A DNA stretch of 64,000 bases from Prochloraceae cyanobacterium (GTDB lineage: Bacteria; Cyanobacteriota; Cyanobacteriia; Cyanobacteriales; JASJDA01), in NCBI GenBank assembly GCA_030065755.1, contig JASJDA010000001.1, positions 24,822 through 88,821 on the forward strand, given 5' to 3'. The notes under the pieces were generated by a model. It was not told the DNA's origin and ran no database searches. It saw only the letters and a program-made list of their open reading frames with translations. A program made the position numbers and the translations under genes. Shown here piece by piece: positions 1 through 19,400 of this stretch (position 1 is its first letter; each line of letters opens with the position of its first letter).

Positions 1-1
1 A

Positions 2-688: not shown

Positions 689-708
689 ATAAATATATAG
701 ATAATGTT

Positions 709-742
709 GTTTGCTGTTTGCTATTTGCTGTTTGCTATTTGA
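709..742. repeat. STRR-type heptamer array (GTTTGCT/ATTTGCT, about 5 units)
   Basis: Direct reading gives gtttgct gtttgct atttgct gtttgct atttga. The array sits just upstream of the likely ATG of the sulfotransferase gene. Confidence 0.85.
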
Positions 743-758
743 AAAATTTCAAGACAAA

Positions 759-1760
759 ATGGTTGCTCAACTAGACTCTCTCTATATCAAAACCCGTCCT
801 CACAAAGCAATATCTCGCTTACTTAGCTATGCTCTATTTGAAGGACGACCCCTTACTACTAAAGGACAGTGGATCAATCCCATAGTCTTGAGTTTATTTA
901 GCCTCGAAAAGCGTCTACCCCAACTCAAAAAAGTAGAAAAACCGATTTTTATTATCGGTACAGGACGCAGTGGTACTACTATTTTAGGGGTAGTATTGTC
1001 TATGCATAAAGATGTAGGTTTTCTCAACGAACCAAAAGCCCTATGGCATTCAATATATCCTGAAGAAGATTTAGTCGGCAGTTATAGTAGAGGTGCTGCA
1101 CGCTATCGTCTTGGGGCTGAAGACGTTACAGAAGAGATAAGTCAAACAGCGCATAGATTATTTGGTGCTTATCTAACTGCGGTAGCATCTAAGCGAGTAG
1201 TAGATAAATATCCAGAATTGATATTTCGCCTCCCATTCGTCCTGAAAATCTTTCCTGATGCTAAATTTATTTTTCTAGTCCGTAATGGATGGGATACTTG
1301 TTCTTCGATCGATAGATGGTCTCAACGTCTCGGTATGGAAGTTGAAGAAGAAACTCACGACTGGTGGGGGGTCAATAATCGCAAATGGAATCTGTTAGTA
1401 GATCAGTTAGTAGCAACCGATCCGAAACTTAAAGAAATTGCACCAGAAATTAAAAACTGCGATCGTCATGCCGATATGGCAGCATTAGAGTGGATCGTAA
1501 CTATGGAAGAAGGATTGCGCTTAATGCAACAGTATCCCGATATTATCCACATGTTGCGTTACGAGGATCTAGTTTCTAGTCCAGAAAGCAGCTTGACAAA
1601 AGTTCTCGAATTTGCAGAGTTATCAAGCGATCGGCAATTTTTCGACTATGCTTGTCAAACACTTTCCCCTCCTGTTGAGAAAAAACCATTTCCTCTCAAT
1701 CCTGCAATTCGTCCATTTTTTGAAGAAACAATGAACAATTTGGGTTATACAGTAGGTTAA
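759..1760 (+). CDS. Sulfotransferase family protein
   Basis: IFIIGTGRSGTTILG is a PAPS-binding P-loop-like motif followed by the typical sulfotransferase layout. The ATG at 759 is in frame with track ORF 711-1760. The upstream TTG start would translate the repeat array. Confidence 0.75.
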   Translation: MVAQLDSLYIKTRPHKAISRLLSYALFEGRPLTTKGQWINPIVLSLFSLEKRLPQLKKVEKPIFIIGTGRSGTTILGVVLSMHKDVGFLNEPKALWHSIYPEEDLVGSYSRGAARYRLGAEDVTEEISQTAHRLFGAYLTAVASKRVVDKYPELIFRLPFVLKIFPDAKFIFLVRNGWDTCSSIDRWSQRLGMEVEEETHDWWGVNNRKWNLLVDQLVATDPKLKEIAPEIKNCDRHADMAALEWIVTMEEGLRLMQQYPDIIHMLRYEDLVSSPESSLTKVLEFAELSSDRQFFDYACQTLSPPVEKKPFPLNPAIRPFFEETMNNLGYTVG

Positions 1761-1788
1761 AAATACAATATCCCTGTTTCCTGTTCCC

Positions 1789-2880
1789 TTAATTACTTCT
1801 TGCTGCTGGCAAAATTAACATAGCATCGCCGAAAGAATAGAAACGATATTTTTGTTCGATCGCCTCCTGATATAAAGAAAATAATCGCTGACGACCCACT
1901 AAAGCACTTACTAACATTAATAAACTGGAACCAGGTAAATGGAAATTAGTAATTAAACCATCTACGACCTGCCACTTATAGCCAGGATAAATAAATAGGT
2001 CGGTCTTGCCACAAAAAGGTTCTAATAACTTAACTTGAGATTTTTTAGCTGCGCCTTCCAAAGTTCTTACTACTGTTGTTCCTACAGCAATAATTCGACC
2101 TCCTTTGGCTTTAGTTTCTTCAATTTTTTCTGCTGTTTTTTGAGAAACTTCTATCCACTCCTGATGCATGAGGTGGGTAGTAATATCTTCAACCTCTACA
2201 GGTCGAAAAGTCCCCAATCCTACGTGTAGCGTTACGTAGGTTCGATCGATTCCCTTAGCTTGTAACCTTTGCAATAATTCCTCAGTAAAATGTAACCCAG
2301 CAGTAGGTGCAGCCACAGCTCCTAACTGCTGAGCGTATACTGTTTGATATTGAGATGGTTGAGATTTAGAAGAAGTAATATAAGGAGGTAGAGGAATCTG
2401 ACCGAAATACTCTAACAATTCTTCACAAGACTTACCTTCAGGAACCTCGAATTCTAATATCCGTCCTCCCGTTGCTTCATCCTTGTCAATTACCCTAGCT
2501 TTGAGGTTAAAATCTATATCTTTGCTTGCTTGAGGTATGGGGGGAAAAACAATCTCTGTTCCTAGTTTGAAGCGCTTCCCTGGCTTAACTAACGCCAGCC
2601 AACAGTTGTCGTTTTGTTTTTCTAAGAGTAATATTTCTACAGGAGCTCCCGTAGACTTGCGACCGTAGAGTCGGGCTGGAATTACGCGAGTATTATTCAA
2701 AACCAGCAAATCTCCTGCTAGTAGCCAATCTGGCAGATCGCGAAAGATACTGTGAGCCCAAGTAGTAGGGGAGTCTACTACTAAAAGACGAGAACTATCT
2801 CTGGGAATGGCTGGAGTTTGAGCTATTAACTCTGGAGGTAGTTCATAATTATAGCTTGACAGTAAACGATCGTCACTCAT
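1789..2880 (-). CDS. queA: S-adenosylmethionine:tRNA ribosyltransferase-isomerase
   Basis: N-terminus [26 protein letters not shown], with full-length QueA-like sequence and size (363 aa). Confidence 0.93.
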
Positions 2881-3092
2881 TATCTTTAAAGGGGCTGGGT
2901 AATGGGTTTATACTTGCTGAGACGCTCCGTTGAATATATATCGCAACAAACAAAAGCCAACAATAATTCATCACTTAGTAGACATTTGGGTAATTTCCCC
3001 CATATTTCCCCCATACAAATCTAAGAAATCGGGGGTATCTACCCTATCCCTAACTTAATATTTCTTGTCAAACTAGGAGTATAGGACATCTT

Positions 3093-3506
3093 ATGACTTT
3101 CGGTAAAGGGGCAATCATGGATTACATATACTTTCTTGCTAACGCCAGCCTAACTTTGCGTGTCATAGAACATATAAGCGCAGCGACCCAATTTTCTATA
3201 GATTCGATGACAGTCATCCATCGCATTGATGGTTGGATCGTAAAAATCAAATTCTGTCAACCCCTTACTCCACAAGAAGATGGTAACTTTAAAGCCTTTA
3301 TGAGTGAGTTGGGTATTTCCTACGAACCCGATATTCGTCTCCAGATGGTATTTTGGAGTTTAGAAACAGGACAATCCCCTATTGATGTAATGCGTCGCTA
3401 TCAAGTTGCTATAGTTTCTCATGGCAATCCCAATAAAAATGATATTGAAGCATTTCGCAAGCAGTTTACCAAAGGTTTGGGATATTGTCCAGAAACTTTA
3501 GCATGA
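3093..3506 (+). CDS. Hypothetical protein
   Basis: 137-aa ORF with no motif I recognise. An internal ATG at 3117 is an alternative start. Confidence 0.45.
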   Translation: MTFGKGAIMDYIYFLANASLTLRVIEHISAATQFSIDSMTVIHRIDGWIVKIKFCQPLTPQEDGNFKAFMSELGISYEPDIRLQMVFWSLETGQSPIDVMRRYQVAIVSHGNPNKNDIEAFRKQFTKGLGYCPETLA

Positions 3507-3706
3507 AAAGTCCAATAACATTCTCGACCGCTTTGGCGGAACTCAAAGGTCATGGGGGCTCTCATAATTGAAACCCCATAAGTGGTTTTGATATTTAAAG
3601 TTCTTATAATTTTGTTTAGAAATTAAGCGTTTTCCATATCACTATCTAAGTTTTTGTAGAGCTACCAAGTTACAAGCTACAATTTAAAAGAAAACTGTGG
3701 GTGATT

Positions 3707-3955
3707 ATGATTAAAATACGCTTAAAAAGATACGGAAAGAAAAGAGAAGTTAGCTACAGAATTGTAGCGATTAACAGTAGAAGTCGTCGGGACGGTCGCC
3801 CTTTAGAAGAGTTGGGCTTCTATAATCCTAGAACCGACGAAACCAGACTGAACGTTCCTGCAATTATCAAACGTCTCCAGCAGGGAGCGCAACCTACTGA
3901 TACTGTACGCAGCATATTAGAAAAAGCTAGAGTGCTCGAACAAGTCAATGCCTGA
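3707..3955 (+). CDS. rpsP: 30S ribosomal protein S16
   Basis: [43 protein letters not shown] is the canonical S16 N-terminus. The ATG at 3707 is preferred over the GTG at 3701. Confidence 0.95.
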
Positions 3956-4361
3956 TTCAATAGCCCTATCTTCCCAAGCTAATAAAATTCCTCTTTACGT
4001 TGAATTGGTTAAGTTTTTGATAGAACCTTTTTTGGACTCGCCAGAATCTCTAAGTATAGACTGTGAAGAATTAAACCAAAATCAACGGGTGTGGGTTAGG
4101 CTGGCATTTGAAGGGAGCGATAAGGGAAAAGTTTTCGGTCGCGGTGGACGCAATATTCAGGCCATTCGCAAAATCCTCGAAACCACAGCAATTGCTGCTG
4201 GTCAAACTCTGTATTTGGATATTTACGAAAACCGCCAAAATACACCACCAAAAATCACTAAAAAGCGAGATAATGACGAAAGAAGCAGAGAACAAGGGAG
4301 AAGAAAGCATCGAACTCGCAATTCTACTCCTCCCAAATTATCAAGCAAATCTCGTTTTTAG
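3948..4361 (+). CDS. KH-domain RNA-binding protein (rpsP-linked UPF0109-like) with a basic C-terminal tail
   Basis: [19 protein letters not shown] carries the KH GxxG loop. The start overlaps the rpsP stop by 8 nt. This is the conserved rpsP-KH gene pair. Confidence 0.8.
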
Positions 4362-5368
4362 CTAAGGCTAGTATTAGCCTCGAGGATATTCCAGACAGTT
4401 TGCAGCAAGGGTTCTAGTTCAATACGGGCAACTGCCGAAATACAGAAAATAGGGGCAGCAGTAAGCTCTTTTAACTGAGCGATCGCTGCAACTTTCATTT
4501 CCTCTGATGCAGCATCTACCTTATTGAGAGCTAGGATCTGAGGGCGCTTATCTAGCCCCCGTCCATATGCTGACAACTCCTGCTGAATAGTCTTATAATT
4601 AGCAATCGGATCGACATCGGTTAAATCGATAAGGTGTAAAAGCAAGCGAGTGCGTTCGATGTGGCGCAAAAAATCGTGACCCAAACCCACTCCAGCCGAA
4701 GCTCCTGCAATCAATCCTGGAATATCAGCGAATACAGTCCCGTCTCCAGTAGGTTTGCGCACTACTCCCAAATTGGGAACTAAAGTAGTGAAAGGGTAAT
4801 TTGCTATCTTGGGACGGGCTGAAGAAAGGGCGGCAATGAGAGTAGATTTTCCCGCATTGGGCAGTCCAATAATTCCTACTTCAGCAAGTAACTTTAACTC
4901 CAAACGCAACCTTCGCTTTTCTCCTGGCAATCCAGGTAAAGCGTGCTCGGGGGCGCGATTGCGATTGCTCAAAAAATGCTTATTGCCTAAGCCTCCCTTT
5001 CCTCCTTTGGCAACACAACAAGTTTGACCGTCCCCAATCAAATCTCCAATTAATTCCTCAGTATCGGCATCGTAAACCTCCGTACCGCAAGGAACTTCAA
5101 TGAGGCGATCGCTTCCAGTTGCTCCTGTTCGATTGCTAGGACCTCCTCGCTTGCCATTTTCAGCTTGAAAATAACGAGCATATTTAAAATCTAGCAGAGT
5201 TTGTAGTCGTTCGGCTGCCACTAAAATTACAGAACCGCCCCATCCTCCATTTCCCCCAGAAGGACCGCCAGCAGGCACGTATTTTTCTCTGCGAAAGGCT
5301 ACGATACCGTCCCCTCCTTTACCTCCTTCTACTTCAATTTCTGCTAGATCGATAAATTGCATAGGCAA
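4358..5368 (-). CDS. obg: GTPase Obg/CgtA
   Basis: The N-terminus [19 protein letters not shown], a Gly-rich Obg fold, and GTPase motifs [15 protein letters not shown] and NKVD. Confidence 0.95.
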
Positions 5369-5387
5369 AAAATGTTTCCCAGATTAA

Positions 5388-6083
5388 TTATATATATTCT
5401 GAGATATCTTCTTGACAATCGTCAGCTAGATAAGATAGCGATCGGAAGCGCAGACCGACTAACTGTTCGTAAAGAGGATTTAGCTTGCACAGAGGGGGAA
5501 TGTGGACGATTTGACGACCGAAAAGCTTAACATCTCTCTCAAAGGGACATTGGGAAGGAACCATTTTGCAAATAAATTTTGCTAATCGCGGATCGTGAAT
5601 TTCCATCTTGTCCAACCAGTCTTTGACTGGATGCAAGAGGTCTGGATGGGGAGAAGGAGGGCTGACTAAGGATTCTTTAACTCCTAAACCTTCTTCTATT
5701 TTATTTTTGTCTGGTTCGCATAAAGTATGCTCTAAAGATTTAAGCGCTTCTAGTTCTAAGCCTAGAGCATCGCTAAATTTGTATAGTAGCTCTGCTTCGG
5801 GAGCGGAGTACACGCCATCAGCAATTGCTACTAGAACTCCTGTTCTCAAAAAGTTTTCTGCAATGTTTTTGTCTTCACCTAAAACCGCCGCTAACTCCTC
5901 TGGCTCGATCGTCGATAAAGAGTTTAATCGATCGTCTGGAATTAGATCGTTCTTGGTAATTTGGGCGATCAATTCCTTTTCTTCAGGAGAAAAATCTCCA
6001 TCTGCCCAAGCAATAGTTAACAAACCGCGCAACCAAGTATATATTTGTTCGTCGGTATAGGCAAGTTGAGTAACGCTTTTCAT
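5388..6083 (-). CDS. TerB-like N-terminal domain fused to a Mo-dependent-nitrogenase-C-terminus-like domain
   Basis: The N-terminal WLRGLLTIAWADGDFSPEEKELI pattern is repeated (AIADGVYSAPEAELL). The C-terminal CPFERDVKLFGRQIVHIPPLCKLNPLYEQL resembles the cyanobacterial Mo-nitro_C family. This is assigned from memory of the family. Confidence 0.55.
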   Translation of the reverse strand: MKSVTQLAYTDEQIYTWLRGLLTIAWADGDFSPEEKELIAQITKNDLIPDDRLNSLSTIEPEELAAVLGEDKNIAENFLRTGVLVAIADGVYSAPEAELLYKFSDALGLELEALKSLEHTLCEPDKNKIEEGLGVKESLVSPPSPHPDLLHPVKDWLDKMEIHDPRLAKFICKMVPSQCPFERDVKLFGRQIVHIPPLCKLNPLYEQLVGLRFRSLSYLADDCQEDISEYI

Positions 6084-6161
6084 AAAATAATTTTTACTCC
6101 CACTACTGAAATAGTGTACATATAGTGGATTTGACTCAGTATAATTTTAATCACAATAAAA

Positions 6162-6878
6162 TTATTTAATATTTTTCAGCTTTTTTTTAGGTTGATTTTT
6201 GCGCGAGTTTTTGTTATCGGCGATAGTAACAGTTTTGCTCAGAGCAGCCACTCCCAATACTTGAATGCCAAGAGAAATAAGTTTTTTAGATGCTTCGGTA
6301 ACAGTGGTTCCCGTAGTGTAAATATCATCTATTAAAAGTATTGGCGCTCGAGGTTTTGTTCGTTGAAAATCTTTACCTACGACAAAGGCTGACTTGAGAT
6401 TGTCTTTTCTTTGCTCCACACTCAACCCATAGAGTGCTTTAGTTTCTCGCACTCTTTCTAAACCCTGCGGCTGCAAAGAATATCCAGTCAATCGACAAAA
6501 ACTCCTGGCAATTAACTCTGCTTGATTGTAACCTCGTTGTTTTAATTTTTTGGGGTGAAGGGGAATCGGGACTACCGTCACTTTTTTAGTTTTAGCATAT
6601 ATTGGGGAATTTAACCAGGCTTTGCCCAACCAACAGCCCATTAATTCTCCCAACTGAGGACAATTTTCATACTTTAAAACAGCAAGCGATCGCTTTAATT
6701 GTCCTCCATAAATACCCCAAGCAAATAAAGGCAAATCTCCTCGCCAAAATTCCGAGCAGTTTTTCAGTTGAGAACTTTGCAGTTGACGCAGACAGTCGCC
6801 ACAAAGACAGCGAGCGGCCGCTCGATGGCAAAGAGGACAATTAGAGCGAGTAAATACAGAGAGCAAACCTTTTAACAT
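6162..6878 (-). CDS. ComF-family phosphoribosyltransferase-domain protein
   Basis: An N-terminal Cys-rich region (CPLCHR..CGDC) plus the PRTase motif ILLIDDIYTTGTTVTEA. Confidence 0.85.
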   Translation of the reverse strand: MLKGLLSVFTRSNCPLCHRAAARCLCGDCLRQLQSSQLKNCSEFWRGDLPLFAWGIYGGQLKRSLAVLKYENCPQLGELMGCWLGKAWLNSPIYAKTKKVTVVPIPLHPKKLKQRGYNQAELIARSFCRLTGYSLQPQGLERVRETKALYGLSVEQRKDNLKSAFVVGKDFQRTKPRAPILLIDDIYTTGTTVTEASKKLISLGIQVLGVAALSKTVTIADNKNSRKNQPKKKLKNIK

Positions 6879-7072
6879 AAACTTTTCTCAAATTTTGATA
6901 GTTAGCCCCTAAATTAGCCAGAGAATAAGACTATATGGATAACTCTTCATCTATCAAAACCAATATTTATCCTTGGAGCAAGAGAAATATCACTTAGATC
7001 GATATTTTGTTGAACTAATGGCAATAAAATACTAAGGTAAGAAAAAATGTACAAATTCTATCTTTTCTGTTT

Positions 7073-7441
7073 ATGAGTTCAGCAAATACCGATAAAACAA
7101 ACACTGATAAAATACTAGAGGCAATGAAAAATTTTGCCGAGCAGTACGCCAAAAGGACTGATACTTATTTTTGTAGCGATCTCGGGGTAACTGCGGTAGT
7201 GATCGAAGGACTAGCAAGACACAAAGAAGAGTTAGGCGCTCCTTTATGTCCCTGCCGTCACTACGAAGATAAAGAAGCAGAAGTTAAAAATACTTTTTGG
7301 AACTGTCCCTGCGTGCCAATGCGCGAAAGAAAAGAGTGTCACTGTATGTTGTTTATCACTCCAGATAACGAATTTGCAGGTGAGGAACAAGCAATTTCCC
7401 TAGAGGAAATTAAAAAAGTAAGAGAGAGTATGTCTCATTGA
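7073..7441 (+). CDS. ftrC: Ferredoxin-thioredoxin reductase catalytic subunit
   Basis: CPCRHY...WNCPCVPMRERKECHCMLF is the FTR-B Cys pattern that holds the 4Fe-4S cluster and the redox disulfide. Confidence 0.93.
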   Translation: MSSANTDKTNTDKILEAMKNFAEQYAKRTDTYFCSDLGVTAVVIEGLARHKEELGAPLCPCRHYEDKEAEVKNTFWNCPCVPMRERKECHCMLFITPDNEFAGEEQAISLEEIKKVRESMSH

Positions 7442-7449
7442 GGTAAATA

Positions 7450-7866
7450 ATGCCACCCCAAGCATTTTGGCAAGGTGTAGAGGAGTTTAATCAAAAAGAA
7501 TTTTACGCTTGTCACGATACTTTAGAGGCTCTATGGATGGACTCAAAAGAGCCTGAAAAAAGCTTCTATAAAGGAGTACTGCAAATTTCAGTTGGTTGCT
7601 ACCACTTGGGCAATCACAACTGGCGCGGTGCAGCTATCCTTTTAGGAGAAGGTATCAGAAATATTAGCGAATACGAACCCGTTTACGAAGATATTGACGT
7701 GACTAGATTGCTAGTCGATAGTAGCGAATTATTACAAGCCGTACAGCAGATTCAACCAGACCAAATCTCTCAATTGGCTCAGAAACTGGAAGAGGGAAAG
7801 TTAATTTCTGACGATCGCTCTATAAATGGATGGCCAAAAATATTTAAGATTGAACCAGAAAATTAG
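7450..7866 (+). CDS. DUF309 domain protein
   Basis: FNQKEFYACHDTLEALW is the typical DUF309 opening motif. Confidence 0.7.
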   Translation: MPPQAFWQGVEEFNQKEFYACHDTLEALWMDSKEPEKSFYKGVLQISVGCYHLGNHNWRGAAILLGEGIRNISEYEPVYEDIDVTRLLVDSSELLQAVQQIQPDQISQLAQKLEEGKLISDDRSINGWPKIFKIEPEN

Positions 7867-7931
7867 TTCAAAATATAGGCGCAAACTGATATATCTAGTA
7901 AACTATCGACAACGATATTTTTTTCAAGATT

Positions 7932-8240
7932 ATGTTACGCAGCTTACGTCAAGATCGCCTGAGATTATTCTTGCTACTGTCAGCGATCGCTTTGGGAAGT
8001 ATAGCCACATTGACTTTTCACAGAAAAGTCATCGCTCAAACAGATGAAGGAACAAGCGCTATTACTCTAAGTGCTGACAGCCAAGAAGCTGACTTCGAGC
8101 TAGGAATCATAACGGCTAGGGGAAACGTACAAATATATTATCCTGCCAGACAAATTCAAGCAACAGCAGCTCAAGCTCAATACTTCGATCGCGAACGTCG
8201 TCTAGTTCTAAGTGGTGACGTTTACGTACTTCAAGAAGGT
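7932..8240 (+). CDS. lptA: LptA/OstA-like periplasmic LPS-transport protein, exon 1 (interrupted by a group II intron)
   Basis: A signal-peptide-like N-terminus is followed by an OstA-like beta pattern (ADSQEADFELGIITARGNVQIYY...LSGDVYVLQEG). The gene lies directly upstream of lptB and lptF/G. The frame runs into GTGCG at 8241 and stops 6 codons later. Confidence 0.8.
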
Positions 8241-9023
8241 GTGCGATTCGTTGGCTAGAAATCGACTGAAACCCTTACAGGGAAACAGGTTGAAGGATTA
8301 GCCGCTAGGAATTAATGAGAGATGCCTTAATTCTCTCGAACCTAGACAACTTAACTAGCCTGATGGTGAGCCTGGTATAAAGTTATACAGCTACAACTGA
8401 GATAGTTGAAGAAATGTAACAGAAATACCTAATCTTAATAATCCTTTAGAGGTTAAATAAGAAACAAGCAAGTCCATCTCTCCAGATGCAGGAGTAAAAG
8501 CATATCCCCTACGGTAGCGAGTGGTCTTCAATCCGTAAAGCGGGGATAAACGTCGAACTATGTAAGCCTTATACAGAAAACGCGGCTAGCAACTGACTAT
8601 GAGCAAGCTTAATGCTGAAGAAACCAGAATGTCACCGTAAGAAGTAAACTGTTCAGTAGCGAAATAAGGTTGACACGCTGCGGTCAAAACATGACCAAAG
8701 GGCAGAAAACTGTGAATAACTAACAGTAAAAGTCAATCATGCACCTTTAATGATTGATTGCATCCAAAAACGCCCTCGGTGATTAAAAGGAACTCTAAAG
8801 TCAGAAACTAAGGTTAGTTAGGAACGAATTAACCTCTGGGATTACTCTCGGAAAGGTCGAACACTCCGAGTAATCAACCAAGATGCAAACTCTACGGAAA
8901 AGTAGGTAACTCAGAGGAGAGATTGCGCAAAAAAGCAAAACGCCTGGGGTAACTCCCACGGATAAGCTGACGTGCGTACGGGAGCATGAATGATAAAGCT
9001 ATCAATTGAGAGCAAAGTTACCG

Positions 9024-11060
9024 ATGAGTAAGTTGCCACACGACCGAAAAAGTAAAATTGAATATTGGCAAGATATCCCCTGGAAACGGGCGGAAAAAGT
9101 CGTATTCTCTCTCCAGAGACGGATTTATCAAGCTAGTCAACGTGGCGATGTCAAAGCTATCCGCAGGCTACAAAAACTACTGCTCCGAAGCTTTTTCGCT
9201 AAGGCAATAGCGGTTAGGAGGGTAACACAGGACAATCAGGGCAAGAAAACGGCAGGGATTGACGGGATTAAATCCCTAAACCCCAAACAACGTCTAGAAC
9301 TGGTATACACGCTCAACCCACTAACGGGCAAAGCCAAATCTGTACGTAGAGTATGGATACCAAAACCTGGCAAAGGGTCGCGCCCGCTCGGAGGTTCCCT
9401 CCGAGTAAGGACGCACCAAGAAGACGAAAAGAGACCGCTAGGGATTCCAACCATGGAAGACCGCGCTAGGCAATGCTTAGTGAAACTTGCCCTTGAACCT
9501 GAATGGGAAGCTCGTTTTGAACCAAATTCCTATGGTTTTAGACCTGGTAGAAGTTGTCAGGACGCTATAGAAGCAATATTTAACGCACTACGCTATAAAA
9601 CAGCCTATGTGATAGATGCCGACATAGCCAAATGTTTTGACAAGATAAACCACAACATCCTACTTAAAAAACTTAATACCTTCCCTGCCATGAGAAGGCA
9701 GATAAAAGCCTGGCTTACTTCGGAAATAAAGGATGGATTTGAATTATTTCCGTCAAAAGAAGGTACCCCACAAGGTGGAGTGATTTCACCCCTATTAGCA
9801 AACATCGCATTACACGGGTTAGAAAAATGCCTCAAAACTTGGATAAGAGGAAAAACCTTAAGATATCCAAACGGAAGGACAATGGCTCTCAAACATAGAG
9901 AGCAAACACTCGGAGTAATAAGATATGCAGATGATTTCGTAATCATACATAAAGATATAGAAATCATAAAAGAGGCAAAAGAAATCACAAAAACATGGTT
10001 ATCAAACTTAGGGCTAGAACTAAAACCAGAAAAAACTAGAATTTGTCACACCTTCAACTGGCATGAAAAAGAAAAACCAGGATTTGATTTTCTTGGATTT
10101 AACATCCGACATTACAAAACTGGAAGACATCATGCCAACAAGACAACAAAAGGAGAAATTAAACCCTATACCCTTCACATCAAACCGACCAAAGAAGCCT
10201 GTCTAAAACATTACAGGGAAATCTCCTTGATTATAGACAGACTCAAAGCAGCCAAGCAAGAAGTACTAATAAGTAAACTAAACTCCATAATCAGAGGATG
10301 GTCTAACTACTATAGATACTCTGTATGTAGTGAAATCTTTAACAAGATAGACTACCAAATCTTTTGGAAACTCAAAAAGTGGGCAGACAAAAGACATCCC
10401 AATAAAACTTGGAAATTCAAAAAACCGAAATATTGGAAAACCATAGAAAACAACAACTGGGTTTTCACAAACGGTAAAAGTAGTCTCATCAAACACAAGA
10501 AAAACTACGATGAGACGAAAAACAAAACCAGGAAAAAGGGAAGAAAGAATCAAGGGGAGATATTCAAAAAGGTACAAGATGTACGCTCTCCATACGATGG
10601 GGATACAATTTATTGGAGCAGCAGATTAGGCAAACACCCAAATATGCCCACAAGTAAAGCCAAATTACTTAAATGGGAAGACGGGAAATGCCCACACTGC
10701 GGATTAAATTTCAAGCATGAAGACGTAATGGAAATCGACCATATCACCCCACGCAAAGCTGGGGGTGGCAGTAGTTACAAAAATCTCCAACTTCTTCACA
10801 GACATTGCCATGACGAAAAAACGAGGGAAGATTTTAAACTGATTGCTGAGTACCAAAACCGCAAGGAATTAGAAAAGCAACACAATAAATCTATCAAATG
10901 GTTCAATGACTTATTCTCACAAGAGAAGTGGAAATGGATTAATGACACCCCTGTTTTGATTAGTGTTCGTGACAAGAATCATGTTTCTGAGGAGCCGTAT
11001 GAGGTGAAAGTCTCACGTACGGTTTTGAAGACGAGTAGGAGGGGTGACTCTCTTACTTAG
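9024..11060 (+). CDS. Group II intron reverse transcriptase/maturase with a C-terminal HNH endonuclease domain
   Basis: RT motifs RPLGIPTMEDRARQ, FRPGRSCQDA and YADDFVI; maturase-X RGWSNYY; HNH CPHCG...DHITPRKAGG...LLHRHCHDEKT. The ATG at 9024 is in frame with the track ORF. Confidence 0.93.
   Translation: MSKLPHDRKSKIEYWQDIPWKRAEKVVFSLQRRIYQASQRGDVKAIRRLQKLLLRSFFAKAIAVRRVTQDNQGKKTAGIDGIKSLNPKQRLELVYTLNPLTGKAKSVRRVWIPKPGKGSRPLGGSLRVRTHQEDEKRPLGIPTMEDRARQCLVKLALEPEWEARFEPNSYGFRPGRSCQDAIEAIFNALRYKTAYVIDADIAKCFDKINHNILLKKLNTFPAMRRQIKAWLTSEIKDGFELFPSKEGTPQGGVISPLLANIALHGLEKCLKTWIRGKTLRYPNGRTMALKHREQTLGVIRYADDFVIIHKDIEIIKEAKEITKTWLSNLGLELKPEKTRICHTFNWHEKEKPGFDFLGFNIRHYKTGRHHANKTTKGEIKPYTLHIKPTKEACLKHYREISLIIDRLKAAKQEVLISKLNSIIRGWSNYYRYSVCSEIFNKIDYQIFWKLKKWADKRHPNKTWKFKKPKYWKTIENNNWVFTNGKSSLIKHKKNYDETKNKTRKKGRKNQGEIFKKVQDVRSPYDGDTIYWSSRLGKHPNMPTSKAKLLKWEDGKCPHCGLNFKHEDVMEIDHITPRKAGGGSSYKNLQLLHRHCHDEKTREDFKLIAEYQNRKELEKQHNKSIKWFNDLFSQEKWKWINDTPVLISVRDKNHVSEEPYEVKVSRTVLKTSRRGDSLT
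10992..11025 (+). ncRNA. Group II intron domain V (catalytic hairpin)
   Basis: A 34-nt hairpin with the AGC triad, a GAAA-type tetraloop and a 2-nt bulge on the 3' strand. Confidence 0.9.
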
Positions 11061-11066
11061 TTTAAT

Positions 11067-11198
11067 AACAGCATCCGCGCTGAAACGATGACTTATCTAA
11101 TTGATGAAGGACGCTTTATTGCGACTCCCAAAGCCGATCGACAGGTAGAATCAACTTACATAATTTCCGATCCACAAGCAGCAACCCAGGAGCAATAA
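11067..11198 (+). CDS. lptA: LptA/OstA-like protein, exon 2
   Basis: Splicing 8240 to 11067 gives ...VLQEG|NSIRAETMTYLIDEGRFIATPKADRQVESTYIISDP..., a continuous OstA-like sequence ending at TAA 11196-11198. Confidence 0.75.
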   Translation, partial: NSIRAETMTYLIDEGRFIATPKADRQVESTYIISDPQAATQEQ

Positions 11199-11220
11199 AC
11201 CTCCCCTATACTCTCTATAT

Positions 11221-11313
11221 AGGGGTAAAAGAGGGAGAGGGGGAGAGAGGGAGAGGGGGACCAGGGGAGAATAACAAAGAGCTAACAGCCAACAGCCAAC
11301 AGCTAACAGCTAA
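11221..11313. repeat. Composite intergenic repeat: GGGAGAG-type purine tract plus AGCYAAC heptamers
   Basis: Direct reading. A closely similar copy in the opposite orientation lies at 33084-33186. Confidence 0.85.
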
Positions 11314-11325
11314 ATAACAAATACG

Positions 11326-12054
11326 GTGACAATTGTACTAGAGAACATTCATAAATCCTACGGCAATCGATTAGTCGTTAATCGAGTCAATATCAGAGTT
11401 TCACAAGGAGAAATTGTCGGACTATTAGGTCCAAATGGAGCAGGAAAAACTACCGTCTTTTATATTGCTACGGGTTTAATTAAGCCAAATGAAGGTAGAG
11501 TATGGCTTGGCGATCGCGATATTACTCCTTTAGCGATCGACTTGCGCGCTCATTTAGGAATCAGTTATCTTCCCCAGCAAGCCAGTATTTTTCGCAATCT
11601 AAGCGTCAAGGAAAATATCCAACTGGTCTTAGAGCAAAGCAAGATATCTTCAAAAGAAAGAACCAAACGCTTGCATCAATTAATACAGGAGTTTCGTCTA
11701 GAAACAATAGCTGGCACAAAAGGGACTATGATATCGGGTGGAGAAAGGCGAAGAACAGAACTAGCAAGAGCTTTAGCCGTAGGAAAACACGGGCCAAAAT
11801 TTCTATTTTTAGACGAACCTTTTGCTGGAGTCGATCCGATCGCCGTTTCAGAAATTCAAAAAATTATCGCTCAGTTACGGGAGAGGCACATAGGTATACT
11901 CATTACAGATCACAATGTGCGAGAAACTCTGGAAATTACCGATCGCGCCTACATTATGCGCGATGGAGAAATTCTAGCATCAGGTGACGCAGAAGAACTT
12001 TATCGCGATGCTTTGGTGCGCAAGTACTATCTAGGAGATCGATTTAAAATCTAG
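11326..12054 (+). CDS. lptB: LPS export ABC transporter ATP-binding protein
   Basis: Walker A GPNGAGKTT, signature SGGERRR, Walker B FLFLDEP. Size (242 aa) and the C-terminal VRKYYLG are typical of LptB. The start is GTG. Confidence 0.9.
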   Translation: MTIVLENIHKSYGNRLVVNRVNIRVSQGEIVGLLGPNGAGKTTVFYIATGLIKPNEGRVWLGDRDITPLAIDLRAHLGISYLPQQASIFRNLSVKENIQLVLEQSKISSKERTKRLHQLIQEFRLETIAGTKGTMISGGERRRTELARALAVGKHGPKFLFLDEPFAGVDPIAVSEIQKIIAQLRERHIGILITDHNVRETLEITDRAYIMRDGEILASGDAEELYRDALVRKYYLGDRFKI

Positions 12055-12063
12055 TTATGTTAA

Positions 12064-13230
12064 ATGAAAACAGATAAATTTAAATTAATTAGGTTCAAAG
12101 TTCCTGGTTTGTCGGTGATGGATCGCTACATTATCGCCGAATTGACCCCACCTTTCCTATTTGGAATGGGTTTATTCACTTCTTTAGGATTGTCAATTGG
12201 TGCTCTATTTTACTTAGTGCGCCAAATCTCGGAGTCGGATCTATTACTTACTACTGCGCTCGAAATCCTATTTTTAAAAATGCCAGAATTTATAGTTTTA
12301 GCCTTTCCTATGTCCGTGCTTCTGGCAACTTTGATGGGATATAGTCGTCTTTCTAGCGACAGCGAAATAATTGCTTTGCGCAGCAGTGGTATTAGAATTT
12401 ATCGGCTCGTTCTTCCTGCTATTGCTTTGAGTCTTTTGATAGTTAGTTTGACTTTTCTGGGTAAAGATTTTATTGCACCAGCTAGTAACTATCAAGCCTC
12501 TATAACCTTAGATCGGGCGCTAAAAAGGGTTAAACCATCCTATATAGATAGAAACATCATTTACCCAGAATATGAAAAAGTCATCCAAGACAATAAGAAA
12601 AAACATACTGTCTTAAACCGCCTTTTTTACGCCGCAGAATTCGACGGTCATTACATGAAAGGTCTGACCATTCTCGATCGCTCCCAGAAAGGAATTAATC
12701 GAATTGTCACTGCCGATCGTGCAACTTGGAATGTCGATTTAAAAAATTGGCATTTTTACAAAGGAACTGTTTACACGATCGCCTCCAATGGAACCTATAG
12801 CGACATCGATCGCTTTGAAGAACAAACACTCAAACTATCCAAAGCACCTCTGGAATTAGCCAAAAGAGGTCTCCACTACGACCAAATGAATATTTTGCAA
12901 GCAATAGATTATTTGAACGTAGTGCGATTGAGCGGCGATCGGCAGAAAATTCGCCAGCTTCAAGTTAAAATTCAAGAAAAAATAGCTTTTCCTTTCGTTT
13001 GTCTTATTTTTGCTTTGGTCGGTGCAGCTATAGGACTCAAACCGCAAAATACAGGGAAAGTCACAAGTTTCGGAATCTGTATTATACTAATTTTTTCTTA
13101 TCATTTGTTATCATTTCTCAGCAGTTCAATGGGAATCTGGGGAATAGTTTCTCCCTTTGTAGCTGCTTGGTTACCTAATTTTCTCGGGTTAGGAGTCGGG
13201 GTTTGGCTGTCGAGTAACTCATCTAAGTAA
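12064..13230 (+). CDS. LptF/LptG-family (YjgP/YjgQ) permease
   Basis: MDRYIIAELTPPFLFGMGLF is the canonical YjgP/YjgQ N-terminus. The protein has several TM segments and a central periplasmic domain, and follows lptB. Confidence 0.88.
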   Translation: MKTDKFKLIRFKVPGLSVMDRYIIAELTPPFLFGMGLFTSLGLSIGALFYLVRQISESDLLLTTALEILFLKMPEFIVLAFPMSVLLATLMGYSRLSSDSEIIALRSSGIRIYRLVLPAIALSLLIVSLTFLGKDFIAPASNYQASITLDRALKRVKPSYIDRNIIYPEYEKVIQDNKKKHTVLNRLFYAAEFDGHYMKGLTILDRSQKGINRIVTADRATWNVDLKNWHFYKGTVYTIASNGTYSDIDRFEEQTLKLSKAPLELAKRGLHYDQMNILQAIDYLNVVRLSGDRQKIRQLQVKIQEKIAFPFVCLIFALVGAAIGLKPQNTGKVTSFGICIILIFSYHLLSFLSSSMGIWGIVSPFVAAWLPNFLGLGVGVWLSSNSSK

Positions 13231-13313
13231 AAAATTAGATACATTATCAGTAAGAATGAGAAGAAAAGCTTATCATGAAACTGCTACGGTCAAATTATGG
13301 AGATTAGTTTAAT

Positions 13314-14513
13314 ATGCGGAAGTTAAATTTTACACACAAAAATATCAACTCTACTAAAAAAGTTACCCCTTTTGCTCGCTTTTTCAAAGCTAGATTAAAA
13401 CCTTTCACAAGACCAATGTTTTGGGCGCCTCCTAGTATTGCTGCATTGCTAGGAATTTGTATTTGGCAATATGTTAGAAATCCAGATTTACTCAATGCTG
13501 CTTCAGATCAACCAGAAACAGTGATCAATTACACAGAGAAAAGTTCTGAGGTGTCGGCAAACGAATCGGAGAACTATTCTTTGGACGATTTGGCGGCAGG
13601 TGCTGATATAGACAATCTCCAAACCCTTTTAACAACATTAAATCGTTCCGAAAATACTAAAAAATCAAGGCGGAAAAAAGCGAAGAATAATCAAACATCT
13701 AGCTCATTGCCGTCAGAAAAAGAAACTCAAATAAAAACAGCTAAAGATTTTTTTGGCAGCTCAATTGAAGATTTGATCGAAAGAGCTAATCCCAAAGATC
13801 CTAATTCAGTTTTCAAGCAAGAAGAAACGCAATCTTTCCTATCTAACTCTTCAGTTAAACCAATCGAAGTTTTAAAAAATAATAATTCTTCAGTAAATAG
13901 GGAAAATCACTTGCAAACTTCTATAGATGAATTATTGCCTGTCAACTCTGGTTTAAACTCTAATCCATCAACAACGGCAACTTCAAACAATAGGAATATT
14001 GTAACTGAGAACAATAATATTAATAATTTATTGTCAAACCAGCTGGTATTTAGCAATAATAATCCCTATTATCGTAGCAATAATCCCCAGGGAGTAAATC
14101 AATACAATCAACAGTTATTACTAAACAATAACCCTTTAGCTAATTCCCAAAATGGAATAAGATCTAATAACCAAAGCTTTAATCAGTTCAATTCCAGTAT
14201 ATTCCCTACCAACACCGGATTAACTAACAACACAAATATACTGCAATCGAATCCTACACAACAAAATCAATTTAACCAATCTGTTTTCGCCAATCCTACA
14301 CTGAGACAAAATCAGTTAGTTCAACCTGGCTTAAGAAATTCCCTGATACAGAATCAATTAGATCCCGCAACTTTACAAAATCAATGGACTCAAAGCCAAT
14401 ATACTAATAGCAATCAGGTATGGCAACAAAACGACGCTATTAGATCCTATTACAATAGTTCTCCATTTCAAAGTTCTCCATTCCAACAAAATCAAACAAG
14501 AGTACTATACTAA
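13314..14513 (+). CDS. Membrane-anchored protein with a long Asn/Gln/Ser-rich low-complexity C-terminal region
   Basis: One N-terminal hydrophobic segment (MFWAPPSIAALLGICIWQYV) is followed by about 250 aa dominated by N, Q, S and T with recurring NNP/NQ/QNQ motifs. Confidence 0.6.
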   Translation: MRKLNFTHKNINSTKKVTPFARFFKARLKPFTRPMFWAPPSIAALLGICIWQYVRNPDLLNAASDQPETVINYTEKSSEVSANESENYSLDDLAAGADIDNLQTLLTTLNRSENTKKSRRKKAKNNQTSSSLPSEKETQIKTAKDFFGSSIEDLIERANPKDPNSVFKQEETQSFLSNSSVKPIEVLKNNNSSVNRENHLQTSIDELLPVNSGLNSNPSTTATSNNRNIVTENNNINNLLSNQLVFSNNNPYYRSNNPQGVNQYNQQLLLNNNPLANSQNGIRSNNQSFNQFNSSIFPTNTGLTNNTNILQSNPTQQNQFNQSVFANPTLRQNQLVQPGLRNSLIQNQLDPATLQNQWTQSQYTNSNQVWQQNDAIRSYYNSSPFQSSPFQQNQTRVLY

Positions 14514-14634
14514 TACATCTAGAGGGCATACGCCCTCGCTCTTCAACAAAAATATTAGTTCTGGCGATCGACTCAAGCAAACATTTCACTTAGTTTAGTC
14601 GATCGCTCTTCAATAATTACGAGTAAAGTTGAAT

Positions 14635-15402
14635 ATGAAACCGTTTTTATTCGTAACAGATTTAGATAATACTTTAGTAGGGGACGATCGAGCTTTAGAA
14701 ACTCTCAATCAAAAGCTTCACAAACATCGCCAAGAATACGGAACTAAAATAGTTTACGCAACAGGACGATCGCTTTACCTCTACAGACAACTAACCACCC
14801 AAAAACAACTTTTACAACCAGATGCTCTTCTAACCTCGGTTGGAACTGAAATTTACTTTAACCCCACAACCCATACTGTAGATGTTGAATGGGCACAAAT
14901 GCTTTCTCAAGGATGGGATCGGGAAAAAATTGTAGCTACAGGTCGCAATTTTGCCGATCTGGTTCTCCAACCTAAATCAGAACAAAATTCTTTTAAAGTT
15001 AGTTATTATCTAACCGATCGAGCTGCTGTCAAAGTTATTCCTAGATTTAAATCTTCTTTATCAGATAAAGGGTTAAATGTCAAGTTTATCTACAGTGCTG
15101 GCAAAGATTTAGACGTGCTTCCCTCTCAAGGAGATAAGGGTTTAGCTTTACAATTTTTACGTCAGAAATGGAAAGTTAATGCCCAGCAAACCTCAGTTTG
15201 TGGCGACTCTGGTAACGATATTGCTCTATTTACTAGACAAGAGAGGGGAATAATTGTGGGAAATGCCAAACCCGAATTGCGTCAGTGGTACCGAGAAAAT
15301 CAAACAGATTATCGCTATCTAGCTACAGCTCATTATGCAGGTGGTATTCTAGAAGGACTAAAACATTTTAACTTTTTTACTTCAAGCGATGGTAGCAAAT
15401 AA
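14635..15402 (+). CDS. spp: Sucrose-phosphate phosphatase (HAD superfamily)
   Basis: FVTDLDNTLVG is HAD motif I; ATGRS and GDSGNDIALF are motifs II and IV. The overall SPP-like sequence ends in GILEGLKHF. Confidence 0.85.
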   Translation: MKPFLFVTDLDNTLVGDDRALETLNQKLHKHRQEYGTKIVYATGRSLYLYRQLTTQKQLLQPDALLTSVGTEIYFNPTTHTVDVEWAQMLSQGWDREKIVATGRNFADLVLQPKSEQNSFKVSYYLTDRAAVKVIPRFKSSLSDKGLNVKFIYSAGKDLDVLPSQGDKGLALQFLRQKWKVNAQQTSVCGDSGNDIALFTRQERGIIVGNAKPELRQWYRENQTDYRYLATAHYAGGILEGLKHFNFFTSSDGSK

Positions 15403-15405
15403 TTC

Positions 15406-16050
15406 CTATATTGTCTGTCGATAGGTATACATAAATATACCTATCGAGCTTAAAGTTAATAATCCCAAAATCATGCTAGGTTCAGGTACAGAACTAATTT
15501 GAAAATCAAAAGCATAGCTGGTTTTGCCAGCAGTTTCTTGATGCCAGAAAGTATAGCTTCCAGAACCAAGTCCCCCTTGAAATCCTTTACCGCCAAGAAG
15601 AGCTTGTCCTAAATCATCTAATACGTCATCTCCCAGTCGATTTCCATCTACTGCACCTATTAAAGCACTACCTAACAAATCACTATCATCAACGATCGAA
15701 AAAATTTCCCGACCTTCTGATACAGCAAAGAAGGATTGACTCAAACGAATATCATCCTCATTGCTGTAACTTTCAAGAAGAATAGCAGTAAGTGCTCGAC
15801 CGTCAGGAATAGTTAAAGACCAAAAATCTGGGTCTTCTGGTGCAGTATCTGAAGGATTTATGTTGGGCAGAGTTGTACCTTTGACAATATTCGAGCCTAG
15901 TGAAATTGACCTCAAAAGTGTAATTTCAGTTGGCATTAAATTGTTGTTAGACAAATCTCCATCAAAACTTTCATCATATATAACTGCCGCATTGGCACTA
16001 AACGTCAAACCCAATGTTGTTATCAGGGTAATTATTGAATACTTAATCAT
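15406..16050 (-). CDS. PEP-CTERM sorting-domain secreted protein
   Basis: An N-terminal signal peptide, and a C-terminal VPEPS followed by a TM helix and a basic tail (SSVPEPSMILGLLTLSSIGIFMYTYRQTI). Confidence 0.8.
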   Translation of the reverse strand: MIKYSIITLITTLGLTFSANAAVIYDESFDGDLSNNNLMPTEITLLRSISLGSNIVKGTTLPNINPSDTAPEDPDFWSLTIPDGRALTAILLESYSNEDDIRLSQSFFAVSEGREIFSIVDDSDLLGSALIGAVDGNRLGDDVLDDLGQALLGGKGFQGGLGSGSYTFWHQETAGKTSYAFDFQISSVPEPSMILGLLTLSSIGIFMYTYRQTI

Positions 16051-16455
16051 AATAAGCTAATTGAGTGGTTGGCGAGCGAGCTGTTAACGAGCGCGGCATT
16101 CATCTATATTAAATAGTGGGATCGCCAAGTTTAAAAATAGTTACCAAAAATACATTTAAGTTAACATTGAGTAAATAAAAGTTTACATTTAACGAATTTA
16201 CCAGCAAAATTGATAAAGTTATATTACGCCGAGCTTAAAAGATTATTATATTTGACAATAATTCTGATAACTGCTAATTGGGCAACAAGTTTATCTGCAA
16301 TTATTTCCTCAGTCAATTTGCAGTATTCAATAGACATAAAAACTCAAGATAAATGAGCTAATATTGTCTCTAGATAAGAAAGTTTTACTAATCTTTAACG
16401 TGACGATAGAGATAAATATGGAATAATAATTGAATAATTTAAAATTCGGATAGAT

Positions 16456-19400
16456 TTAGAACAAATTAAAACGATGAAATTTACCAGCAAATAAATCGTG
16501 GAGAATTGTATAAAAACAAGGAATAATAAAGAGGGTCAAAAAAGTGGCTAAAGACAAACCAGAAAAGACAACTATACCTAAAGGTTGTAAAAATTCCGAA
16601 CCTTGACCAATTCCTAAAGCCAAAGGAAACAGTCCTAAAACAGTCGTGATAGTAGTCATTAAAATAGGTCGCAAACGTTGGGATGCGGCTTTTAAAATAG
16701 CCTCGTAGCGATCGAGCTTTTGTTCTGTATAAATTTGGTTGGCAAACTCTACCATAACGATCGCATTATTAACCACAATTCCTACTAATAAAATCGCCCC
16801 GACTAATACTGTTGCACCTATAGCAGTATTGGTAATATAAAGTCCGAATATTCCTCCCGCTAATGCCAAGGGAATGGTAAATATAATCACCAAAGGATCG
16901 ACTAGAGAATTATATTGCACTGCCATCACTACAAATACTAAAAAAGCAGCTAACCAACCCAAAATTGTGAGAGAATCTTGTAATTGCTGGTTAGTTGCTT
17001 GGGAAAAACTGGGGAGAAATGTAACTCCAGCAGGCAGTTCTAAAGACTCCAAAACTGAATTAGTTTGGTCAAATGCTTCTGACAAAGTTGCGCCTTCAGC
17101 CAGGTTTCCTGCTATTAAAAATACGTTTCGTCTATTAATACGTTGAATTTCTCCTGGGGCAACTCCAAGTTGTATTTGGGCTATATCTTGAAGATATATG
17201 GATCGATCGTCACCTACTAATACTGGTAATTGGGATAATTGAGAGACATTTTGTATGGCAGATTGTTCTAATTGAACTCGAATATCTACTAAGCGATCGC
17301 CTCGCTGTAATTCAGTTGGTATCGTCCCGTCGATCGCAGTTTGGAGTGCTTCACCTATATTATTAACAGACAAGTCAAATTGGGCAATTCTTTCCCAGTC
17401 GGGGCGAATTTGTACTTCTGGCTGTTTGCGATCGCTATTGCTGCGAAAACGGGCTAGTGTAACGGCGCGATCGAGTTCTTCTAATACGTGTAATCCTGCT
17501 TGTTCTAAAAGTTTTGGATCGGTTCCCTGTAAATTTACGTCGATTTCTCCTCGCGTGGGAGAATTAGAGAGGGTAATTCCTCGGACTCTTTCAGGACTCA
17601 TTCGCAACCGAGTATTGACCAGATTTAAGTCAGCCAACTCTCGGTTACAACGATCGATATAAGCGTCTAAATTACTTCCTGGCTTAATGACGATTTTACT
17701 CGAACCTCGCAATACGTTAGGAAAATTACTATTACCGAAAACAAAGCCTCCCGCAGTGGTAAATACACTCTCAGTTTCTGGTTGACTCAATAAAATATCG
17801 TCCACCATTTTCATCACTCGACGATTTTCTGCCAAAGTAGTCCCAGGAGGAAATGAAGCATATAAATTCGCTTGTCCGGTATTAATGCGAGGTAGGATTT
17901 CTCGATCGAGCTGTCCTGCTAATAAAATACTATTACCGCCCAAACCAATAAAAGCGATCGCAATAACTAGCAAGCGATAGCGCAATACTAACCCTAACCA
18001 CCATTGATAAGTTCTATTAGCAGCCCGAAAACTGCGATCGAACCAGCGCAATAAAAAGAAGTTACCCAACCCACTCGATCGAGGAATAGCTAACAAACGA
18101 GATGCTAACATCGGTACCACAGTTAAAGCTATAACTAAGGATGAAGCCACAGCAAAACTAATAGTCAGAATTAATTGATTGAATAACAAAGAGAACAATC
18201 CGCCAACCAATAAAAACGGTACTACCGACACTAAATTAGTACTGGTTGAAGCTAATAATGCCGATTCTATCTCAGTACTGCTGCGTTCGGCTGCATCGAT
18301 CGCATCCCGTTGTTTGAGAGATCTTTTGGCTCTTATATCTACCCCCTCGGCGATCGCTTCCAACATCACGATCGCGTTATCGACCACGATACCCACACCC
18401 AAGGCTAATCCACCCAAACTAAATATATTCAGAGATAAGCCAAATAACTTCATCAAGACGATCGCGGTTAAAGTAGCCAGAGGAATAGCAATAACAATAA
18501 TCAGGGTTTGTCGCAGGGAACCCAAAAACAATAAAACTGTTAAAGCTGCTAATATGGCACCACTCAAACCAGATACAGCTACATTCCTAATAGCGTTGCG
18601 AATAAATACCGACTCGTCAAAAGTAGTAATTAACTTTACATCATCAGAAATCAAACCAGATTTGCGCAACCAATCTAATCTTTCTTTTACTCCCTCTATG
18701 ACCGCAACAGTATTAGCATCGGGTTGCTTTTGAATGCTTACCTTAACTGCTGGTTCCTTATTGAGATAAACAAACACCCGTTGTTCTGCGGTTCCGTCAA
18801 TTACTTCTGCAAAATCCCGTAAATATACCCGTCGATCTCCTACTTTAAAAGCTACGTCCCGAATCTCTTCAGGGGTTTGAAAGCGCCCTACAGTCCTAGT
18901 TAAAGGCTCTTCTCTACCCCCCGACAAACGTCCCCCAGACACGTCTAAATTGCGATTTTCCAACTCATCTAATACGTCGGTCAATCCCAATCCCAAAGCT
19001 TGCAAACGCACCGGATCGATCCTGACTTGTACCTCTTCGGTTACTCCTCCAGAAACGTCTACAGTAGCCACTCCAGGAACTACACTTAATTCTCGCCCCA
19101 ATTCTTCATCAGCAAAAACCCGCAGATCTACATCTTTTAAAGAAGGAGATTGTAAAGCAAACTCGTATACTGGCAATCCAGAAGGCTCAAACTTAAATAT
19201 AACGGGATCTTCTACCACATCTGGCAACCTTCCTCTAGCGCGGTTAAAAGAAGCTGTAGCCTCGTTTAAAGCTTGGTCTACATCTCCACCAGGTTTAAAA
19301 TAAAGGTCGATACTAACGCGACCTTCCCTGGTTCTAGAGTAAATTTGAACTACTCCCTCGGTAACGCTTAAAGCTTCTTCGAGGGGTTTTGTTACCTCTT

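Follow-up and report, generated by a model that had tools for sequence, protein, structure and literature searches.

An apparently complete group II intron interrupts an lptA-family gene of a Prochloraceae cyanobacterium and is missing from a closely related allele

A group II intron was identified inside an lptA-family gene in a 64,000-nucleotide stretch of Prochloraceae cyanobacterium DNA (assembly GCA_030065755.1, contig JASJDA010000001.1, positions 24,822 to 88,821), henceforth referred to as the window and numbered from its own first base. The observations taken jointly are best explained by a full-length retromobile intron at 8241–11066 that was recently gained as a splicing-dependent sense insertion, an explanation we consider highly probable. 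To judge by its sequence, the intron is apparently complete and active. An earlier examination of the nucleotides, made without database searches (the sequence-only reading), had proposed a mobile-type group II intron inserted in frame, and this was borne out by an empty site in a syntenic contig, an intact intron-encoded protein (IEP) and well-formed ribozyme domains V and VI (DV and DVI).

The open reading frame (ORF) listing and its translation confirmed the layout described in the sequence-only reading. After exon 1 the frame opens with GTGCG at 8241, reads VRFVG and meets a TAG at 8256–8258; it restarts at 11067, 2826 nt downstream of 8241. The 3′ end of the intron is the AAT closing at 11066, and the GTGCG and AAT termini match the conserved GUGYG and AY boundaries. 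The empty site was found in L001, a contig of an ENA metagenome assembly reached through the protein P0001 (146 aa, 96% identical to the spliced protein). The genes of L001 follow the order seen in the window (FTR-B, DUF309, lptA, lptB, lptF/G), and BLASTN aligned its positions 1–7413 with window 828–8240 at 98.5% identity and its positions 7413–15545 with window 11066–19189 at 99.3% identity. The window thus holds exactly 2826 additional nucleotides at the predicted splice sites, with the ambiguity of a single T. Because the alignment breaks at the same base, the exact empty site is known and the insertion is delimited independently of splice-site prediction. The target sequence at the insertion site is the same in the window strain and in L001, and two more intron-less lptA alleles (P0257 and P0258) belong to the same 90% cluster. 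This presence/absence polymorphism at the exact site constitutes indirect evidence of past mobility. A degenerate junction pattern, designed for intron-bearing or empty lptA, returned 0 matches in JGI metagenomes.

Joining of the two exons (309 and 132 nt, each divisible by three) preserves the reading frame and yields a 146-aa product, ...VYVLQEG/NSIRAETMTYLIDEGRF..., in which the slash marks the insertion point between codons 103 and 104, in sense orientation. The predicted junction of the ligated exons is ...CAAGAAGGT/AACAGCATCC..., also given as ...GTACTTCAAGAAGGT/AACAGCATCCGC.... The spliced product matched the Pfam LptD_N family (PF03968) with 37 bits against a cut-off of 20.4, over residues 71–118 and thus across the junction. 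Alignment of orthologues through this point had been set beforehand as a test capable of refuting the proposal; in the alignment with 13 cyanobacterial orthologues, named as LptA/OstA family, the junction residues G103, N104 and S105 were invariant and gap-free in all 14 sequences. The aligned orthologues and the three closest alleles (L001, P0257 and P0258) are uninterrupted. An AlphaFold model of the spliced protein (mean predicted local distance difference test score 75, above 85 at residues 50–120) shows an N-terminal helix followed by a beta-jellyroll, with the junction in a turn between strands 90–101 and 104–114 and the last three strands supplied by exon 2. The best fold matches of the model in the PDB were LptH (4UU4) and LptA (2R1A), with E about 3e-6 (2.5e-6), followed by LptD N-terminal domains and LptC.

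A search of the window with Rfam at curated thresholds gave one group II signal only, whose 3′ limit is the base immediately preceding the resumed frame. The match to RF00029 (domains V–VI, 10990–11066) reached 61.8 bits (gathering score 40, E 1e-9), in agreement with the consensus domain V noted earlier, and the plastid-type D5 model scored 62.6 bits. No match to the Rfam D1–D4 models was obtained in 8150–11150 at a permissive E-value. Domain I (DI) was delineated with a consensus fold of five related introns, in which 32 of the 132 pairs show compensatory changes. Two stem-loops are predicted directly 3′ of the 5′ strand of the DI basal helix, at alignment columns 43–93 and 95–136. The coordinates of all features are collected in Table 1.

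Table 1 Features of the intron, its host gene and the adjoining lpt genes, in window coordinates. EBS, exon-binding site; IBS, intron-binding site; RT, reverse transcriptase.
Feature	Position	Strand	Basis
lptA-family gene exon 1, 309 nt, codons 1–103	7932..8240	+	ORF listing, translation; collinear with L001 7105–7413
IBS2 TACTTC, -14 to -9 (-14 possibly IBS2a)	8227..8232	+	Perfect complement of GAAGTA; same geometry in L083, L084, L086
IBS1 GAAGGT, -6 to -1	8235..8240	+	Pairs with ACCTTT 8743–8748; covaries in L083, L084
Group II intron, 2826 nt, 5′ GTGCG ... 3′ AAT	8241..11066	+	Missing from syntenic L001; Rfam D5–D6 end at 11066
Ribozyme domain I (3′ limit approximate), two extra 5′ stem-loops at ~8253–8346	8241..8800	+	Consensus fold
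EBS2 GAAGTA, after UAA with middle A8639 as candidate EBS2a	8641..8646	+	Pairing; architecture as in PMC8643678
EBS1 hairpin, EBS1 ACCTTT at 8743–8748	8731..8759	+	Stem compensatory at 6/10 pairs; loop covaries with 5′ exon
IEP ORF, 678 aa (RVT_N, RT, maturase/X, HNH)	9024..11060	+	Pfam RVT_N, RVT_1, GIIM, HNH; TIGR04416; identical to MDJ0712621.1
48-nt GC-rich hairpin insert, in frame, RT fingers loop (GSRPLGGSLRVRTHQE)	9375..9422	+	Not in L083, L082 (3-nt junction ambiguity)
Domain V, catalytic AGC at 10993–10995	10992..11025	+	Rfam RF00029 and RF04357 alignments
Domain VI, bulged branch-point A at 11059 in IEP stop TAG 11058–11060	11029..11064	+	RF00029 structure line, ORF end
lptA-family gene exon 2, 132 nt, codons 104–146 plus stop	11067..11198	+	Translation; collinear with L001; last three beta-strands of model
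lptB	11326..12054	+	TIGR04406, 328.8 bits vs cut-off 240
lptF/lptG-family permease gene	12064..13230	+	PF03739, 271.9 bits; NCBIfam LptG, LptF models below cut-offs

The EBS1/IBS1 and EBS2/IBS2 pairings proposed in the sequence-only reading proved complementary and correctly placed, and they were further supported by covariation in the sibling introns L083, L084 and L086 (Table 2). EBS1 is part of the 9-nt loop that closes the hairpin TCAATCAT/ATGATTGA (8733–8757), whose stem is lengthened to 10 bp in the consensus fold. EBS1–IBS1 comprises five Watson-Crick pairs and one G.U pair and EBS2–IBS2 six pairs as an exact complement; the probability that 12 fixed-position pairs are all Watson-Crick or GU by chance is about 0.375^12, or ~8e-6. 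In all copies compared (the window, L083, L084 and L086), IBS2 occupies -14 to -9 and IBS1 -6 to -1. That the EBS1 and EBS2 columns change together with the exons at unrelated target sites is the strongest computational support for these predicted pairings.

Table 2 Sibling introns, their insertion sites and their predicted exon pairings.
Copy	IEP identity	Insertion site	EBS1/IBS1	EBS2/IBS2
Window		lptA-family gene	ACCTTT / GAAGGT	GAAGTA / TACTTC
L083	81%	Apparently non-coding	TACTTC / GAAGTA	GACAAA / TTTGTC
L084/L085	70%	Peptidase M3 gene, split (another assembly)	TAGCAC / GTGCTA (L084)	GTTTTC / GAAAAT (L084)
L086/L087	69%	Upstream of DUF932 gene, within continuous ORF	5/6 pairs (L086)	CGACTA / TAGTTG (L086)
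L002	69%	Flanks look chimeric		

Position -14 (T8227) has two alternative partners, A8646, by which EBS2 is extended to 6 bp, or A8639 at the EBS2a position of PMC8643678. A8639, within a UAA segment, could pair with T8227 in the window; the corresponding bases do not fit in the siblings (C vs T in L083, U vs G in L084), and the contiguous 6-bp extension of EBS2 is the only Watson-Crick option at -14 in L083, L084 and L086. Based on these four copies, the intron family may tentatively be regarded as one without an EBS2a–IBS2a pair.

The IEP exceeded the cut-off of the NCBIfam group II RT/maturase equivalog TIGR04416 (322.7 bits, cut-off 300) and retains the YADD and HNH motifs. Its best match among solved structures was the T.el4h maturase (6ME0; E 4e-85, residues 14–599), which is of class CL1 and the sole CL representative in the PDB. 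The closest full-length relatives among the similarity-search matches are 77–83% identical, the named ones originating from metagenome-assembled genomes (MAGs) of Prochloraceae cyanobacterium, and every close relative comes from cyanobacteria. The 90%-identity cluster of the window IEP also contains three partial C-terminal fragments (P0253–P0255, 252–270 aa).

Within the RT fingers, the IEP carries a 16-aa insert encoded by a 48-nt hairpin, CTCGGAGG-TTC-CCTCCGAG, located between KPGK and DEKRPLGIP; the site maps between residues 123 and 124 of T.el4h. The closer siblings do not have it. Diverged inserts with compensated stems occur at the same codon in the more distant siblings L084 (~3349–3387, GCCGAGG-TGT-CCTCGGC) and L086 (~3352–3399, GGCGAGG-TTT-CCTCGCC), and siblings with the homologous insert retain full ORFs. 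A 6-nt remnant of the insert was observed in L002 (~4337–4342), and the IEPs P0143 and P0188 contain unrelated inserts in the same fingers loop. The insert may represent a small mobile element with a palindromic sequence, or an RNA hairpin under selection. Its sole, weak match elsewhere in the window is intergenic, at 45328–45352 (22/25 to the insert core, GAGGTTCCCTCAGAATAAGAACGCAG, E 0.03), and may represent a degenerate second copy of the repeat or chance. At the other end of the IEP, the reading frame (10992–11060) runs through DV into DVI, such that the final 23 amino acids (EEPYEVKVSRTVLKTSRRGDSLT) correspond to catalytic-core sequence and the stop codon includes the branch-point A11059. 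Among 87 related ORFs, 21 extend past DV and 12 end at the same TAG. On any one RNA molecule, translation through the IEP tail would preclude a folded DV/DVI, and vice versa.

The following course of events is proposed. The intron would have arrived by recent reverse splicing of an intron ribonucleoprotein into DNA, guided by EBS1/IBS1 and EBS2/IBS2 base pairing; the HNH domain would then cut the bottom strand before target-primed reverse transcription set in. lptA would now be transcribed through the intron, and either the pre-mRNA or free intron RNA would be the template for the IEP, which would serve as maturase. The ribozyme would be excised as a lariat with its branch at A11059, and the ligated exons would encode the full 146-aa beta-jellyroll protein; unspliced mRNA would give only a 108-aa product without the last three strands. 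The host protein would accordingly be expected to depend on splicing, and LptA output would be coupled to maturase activity. A more far-reaching idea, to which we assign very little probability, is that the intron goes beyond being a parasite the host tolerates: maturase-dependent splicing would gate the Lpt bridge protein and possibly the downstream lptB–lptF/G, and intron-bearing and intron-less strains of one Prochloraceae population would differ in how lipopolysaccharide export at the outer membrane reacts to conditions; linked to it is the notion that the RT-fingers hairpin and the IEP frame through DV/DVI tune IEP translation versus ribozyme folding.

With respect to the direction of change, gain of the intron is favoured because no interruption is seen in the orthologues or in the three nearest alleles and because, of 80 related introns located in other genomes and species, 0 have lptA as host. 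The opposite course, in which the intron is old in lptA and the L001, P0257 and P0258 alleles arose by precise loss, for example through recombination with cDNA of the spliced mRNA, is unlikely in the light of these same comparisons and of the near-perfect match between the exon-binding sites and the target, which is expected soon after insertion. It draws on two facts: a presence/absence polymorphism by itself carries no direction, and the closest full-length IEPs among the matches listed are 83% identical, no full-length near-identical donor copy having been seen. Misjoining of a repeated intron into lptA during metagenome assembly or binning can hardly be credited. Intron families are indeed multi-copy repeats in these MAGs and the related locus L002 has chimeric-looking flanks, but in the window the two junctions share one base position in a continuous gene, the EBS1 and EBS2 of the intron are complementary to this very 5′ exon, and the truncated 108-aa exon-1 ORF and the IEP were each found on two contigs.

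The insertion might instead have inactivated the gene. If splicing were inefficient, owing to the RT-fingers insert or a ribozyme defect, lptA would be a pseudogene and its function dispensable or provided by another OstA-family protein. NCBI lists proteins of the window from MDJ0712619 to MDJ0712623 (Prochloraceae cyanobacterium MAG), among them accessions for the IEP, LptB and LptF/G and none for lptA on this contig, which indicates that the annotation pipeline rejected lptA as an intact gene. The 16-aa insert in the IEP is unusual, and the search for a paralogue (tblastn), in which no second lptA copy was found, covered 64 kb of the genome. Inactivation is nonetheless rather improbable. Both exons are intact and in frame, the 5′ end, the EBS sites, DV, DVI and the 678-codon IEP ORF are likewise intact, and the siblings with a homologous insert still have full ORFs. 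All six amino-acid differences between the window and L001 proteins lie within residues 2–41 and the differences in the jellyroll, the conserved domain, are synonymous only, so there is no sign of decay of lptA.

Several further points weigh against a recently gained intron on whose splicing an LptA protein depends. The window belongs to a MAG contig and hence represents a population consensus sequence, and splicing in vivo is predicted from the nucleotide sequence only. Support for the six-domain layout covers DI, through the consensus fold, and DV and DVI, through Rfam. No alignment column covaried with the +1 exon base, as would be expected of EBS3, over five copies, two of which have suspect flanks. 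The 16-aa fingers insert might compromise reverse transcription, without necessarily affecting the maturase function. As for the host gene, the NCBIfam LptA equivalogs TIGR03002 and NF008143 were not reached (43.3 vs a cut-off of 71.7 bits and 26.4 vs 234 bits, respectively), and the N-terminal hydrophobic helix would also be compatible with an LptC-like anchored bridge instead of LptA; the LptC model TIGR04409 scored 19.9 bits vs a cut-off of 38. Because the equivalog cut-offs were missed, the gene is labelled LptA/OstA-family and not a proven LptA orthologue. The identification as lptA made in the sequence-only reading therefore stands at the family level only, on the LptD_N match, the fold and the synteny, and the NCBI naming of the orthologues is likewise at that level.

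The placement of the gene at the head of an lptA–lptB–lptF/G cluster was upheld, with lptB (TIGR04406) and the PF03739 permease gene directly downstream in the same order as in L001. The distance from the lptA stop to the lptB start is 128 nt. Within this spacer, an inverted repeat, CCCCTATA...TATAGGGG, lies immediately 3′ of the lptA stop (11203–11225), followed by purine-rich AGAGGG/GGGAGAGG tandem repeats (11230–11270) and 4.9 copies of the heptamer AGCTAAC (11280–11313). Compared with L001, 11 of 147 lptA codons differ, as against 0–4 in each neighbouring gene; the N-terminal leader/linker (7932–8054 vs L001 7105–7227) is a local hot spot of divergence between the intron-bearing and intron-less alleles.

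Among the related introns, a site was counted as intragenic if a sense-strand ORF remained open for at least 60 codons on each side of the predicted junction, and ~15 of ~45 evaluable sites fell within such ORFs. L002 was considered as an example of covariation and was dropped, since its flanks come from different genes, which suggests a chimeric assembly. The 5′ flank of this copy (3170–5974) is a secreted-protein-like ORF and the 3′ flank is an internal part of an aminotransferase-like gene in a different frame; the contig is probably chimeric across the repeated intron, and its flanks imply a further sibling copy inside an aminotransferase gene. Two introns on Calothrix plasmids (L011 4451–6969 and L038 4445–6967) are twintrons, located within the RT ORF of another group II intron at the junction ...FEPNSFGFRPG/RNAHDAI.... 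In Hormoscilla (L077), two introns (1696–4081 and 4144–6571) are arranged in tandem, 62 nt apart.

The window and L001 provide a natural pair of filled and empty alleles with an exact breakpoint and flanks that are 98.5–99.3% identical, a probable record of recent group II intron movement in an uncultured cyanobacterium, with a conserved gene of envelope biogenesis as the target. The window intron and its siblings form a small natural series on the retargeting of EBS1 and EBS2. Unless introns are recognised, reconstructions based on genomes would wrongly score LptA as missing, since the contig carries no protein record for it. Knowledge of group II introns itself is unchanged by this case.

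The intron is assigned to the cyanobacterial chloroplast-like (CL) IIB type, and within it probably to IIB2/CL2, as judged from the consensus fold and literature descriptions. This assignment was made because DI is predicted to have two 5′ stem-loops, which at the base of DI separate IIB2 introns of cyanobacteria and chloroplasts from IIB1 (PMC8643678), and because CL2 introns are almost exclusively cyanobacterial (PMC4424553). CL-type introns have expanded in Cyanobacteriota (PMC8919778). The sequence-only reading had called insertion in a conserved envelope-biogenesis gene the rarer situation, typical of cyanobacteria and organelles. This holds for bacteria generally, in which the majority of group II introns lie outside housekeeping genes (PMC4424553), but not for the present clade, with about one third of sites in ORFs, nor for described cyanobacteria: Trichodesmium erythraeum has 17 introns in 10 host genes, with splicing demonstrated (PMC4143802). 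A literature search turned up no group II intron in a cyanobacterial lptA and nothing relevant for Prochloron. lptA may thus be new as a host of group II introns; cyanobacterial introns in conserved genes are already known.

The Trichodesmium CL introns (PMC4143802) share with the window intron the phylum, the IIB-type ribozyme, an RT-X-D-En IEP (En, endonuclease), the multi-copy families and the sense insertion in conserved genes whose expression needs splicing. The window intron differs from them in its LptA/OstA-family host gene, in that its splicing is inferred, and in the natural empty-site allele at hand. Th.e.I3/T.el4h of Thermosynechococcus elongatus (6ME0, 6MEC; PMC8643678) likewise uses IBS1 at -6 to -1 and IBS2 at about -13 to -9; for an EBS2a–IBS2a pair at -14 the window offers a candidate. 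T.el4h is of the IIB1/CL1 subgroup and lacks HNH, whereas the window intron has HNH, two extra predicted 5′ DI stem-loops (an IIB2 trait), a longer C-terminal IEP tail through DV/DVI and the 16-aa fingers-loop insert. EcI5 of E. coli (IIB1/CL1; PMC8643678), which serves as the model of EBS-guided retrohoming, is comparable as an IIB element with an En domain; it retrohomes, and its recognition through EBS1, EBS2 and EBS2a can be reprogrammed. It belongs to another subgroup and a plasmid/mobile context, in contrast to the chromosomal envelope gene occupied here. The recA intron of Geobacillus kaustophilus and the Azotobacter heat-shock operon intron (PMC4424553), which are of other intron classes and other phyla, resemble the window intron in interrupting a conserved cellular gene whose expression is presumed to depend on splicing.

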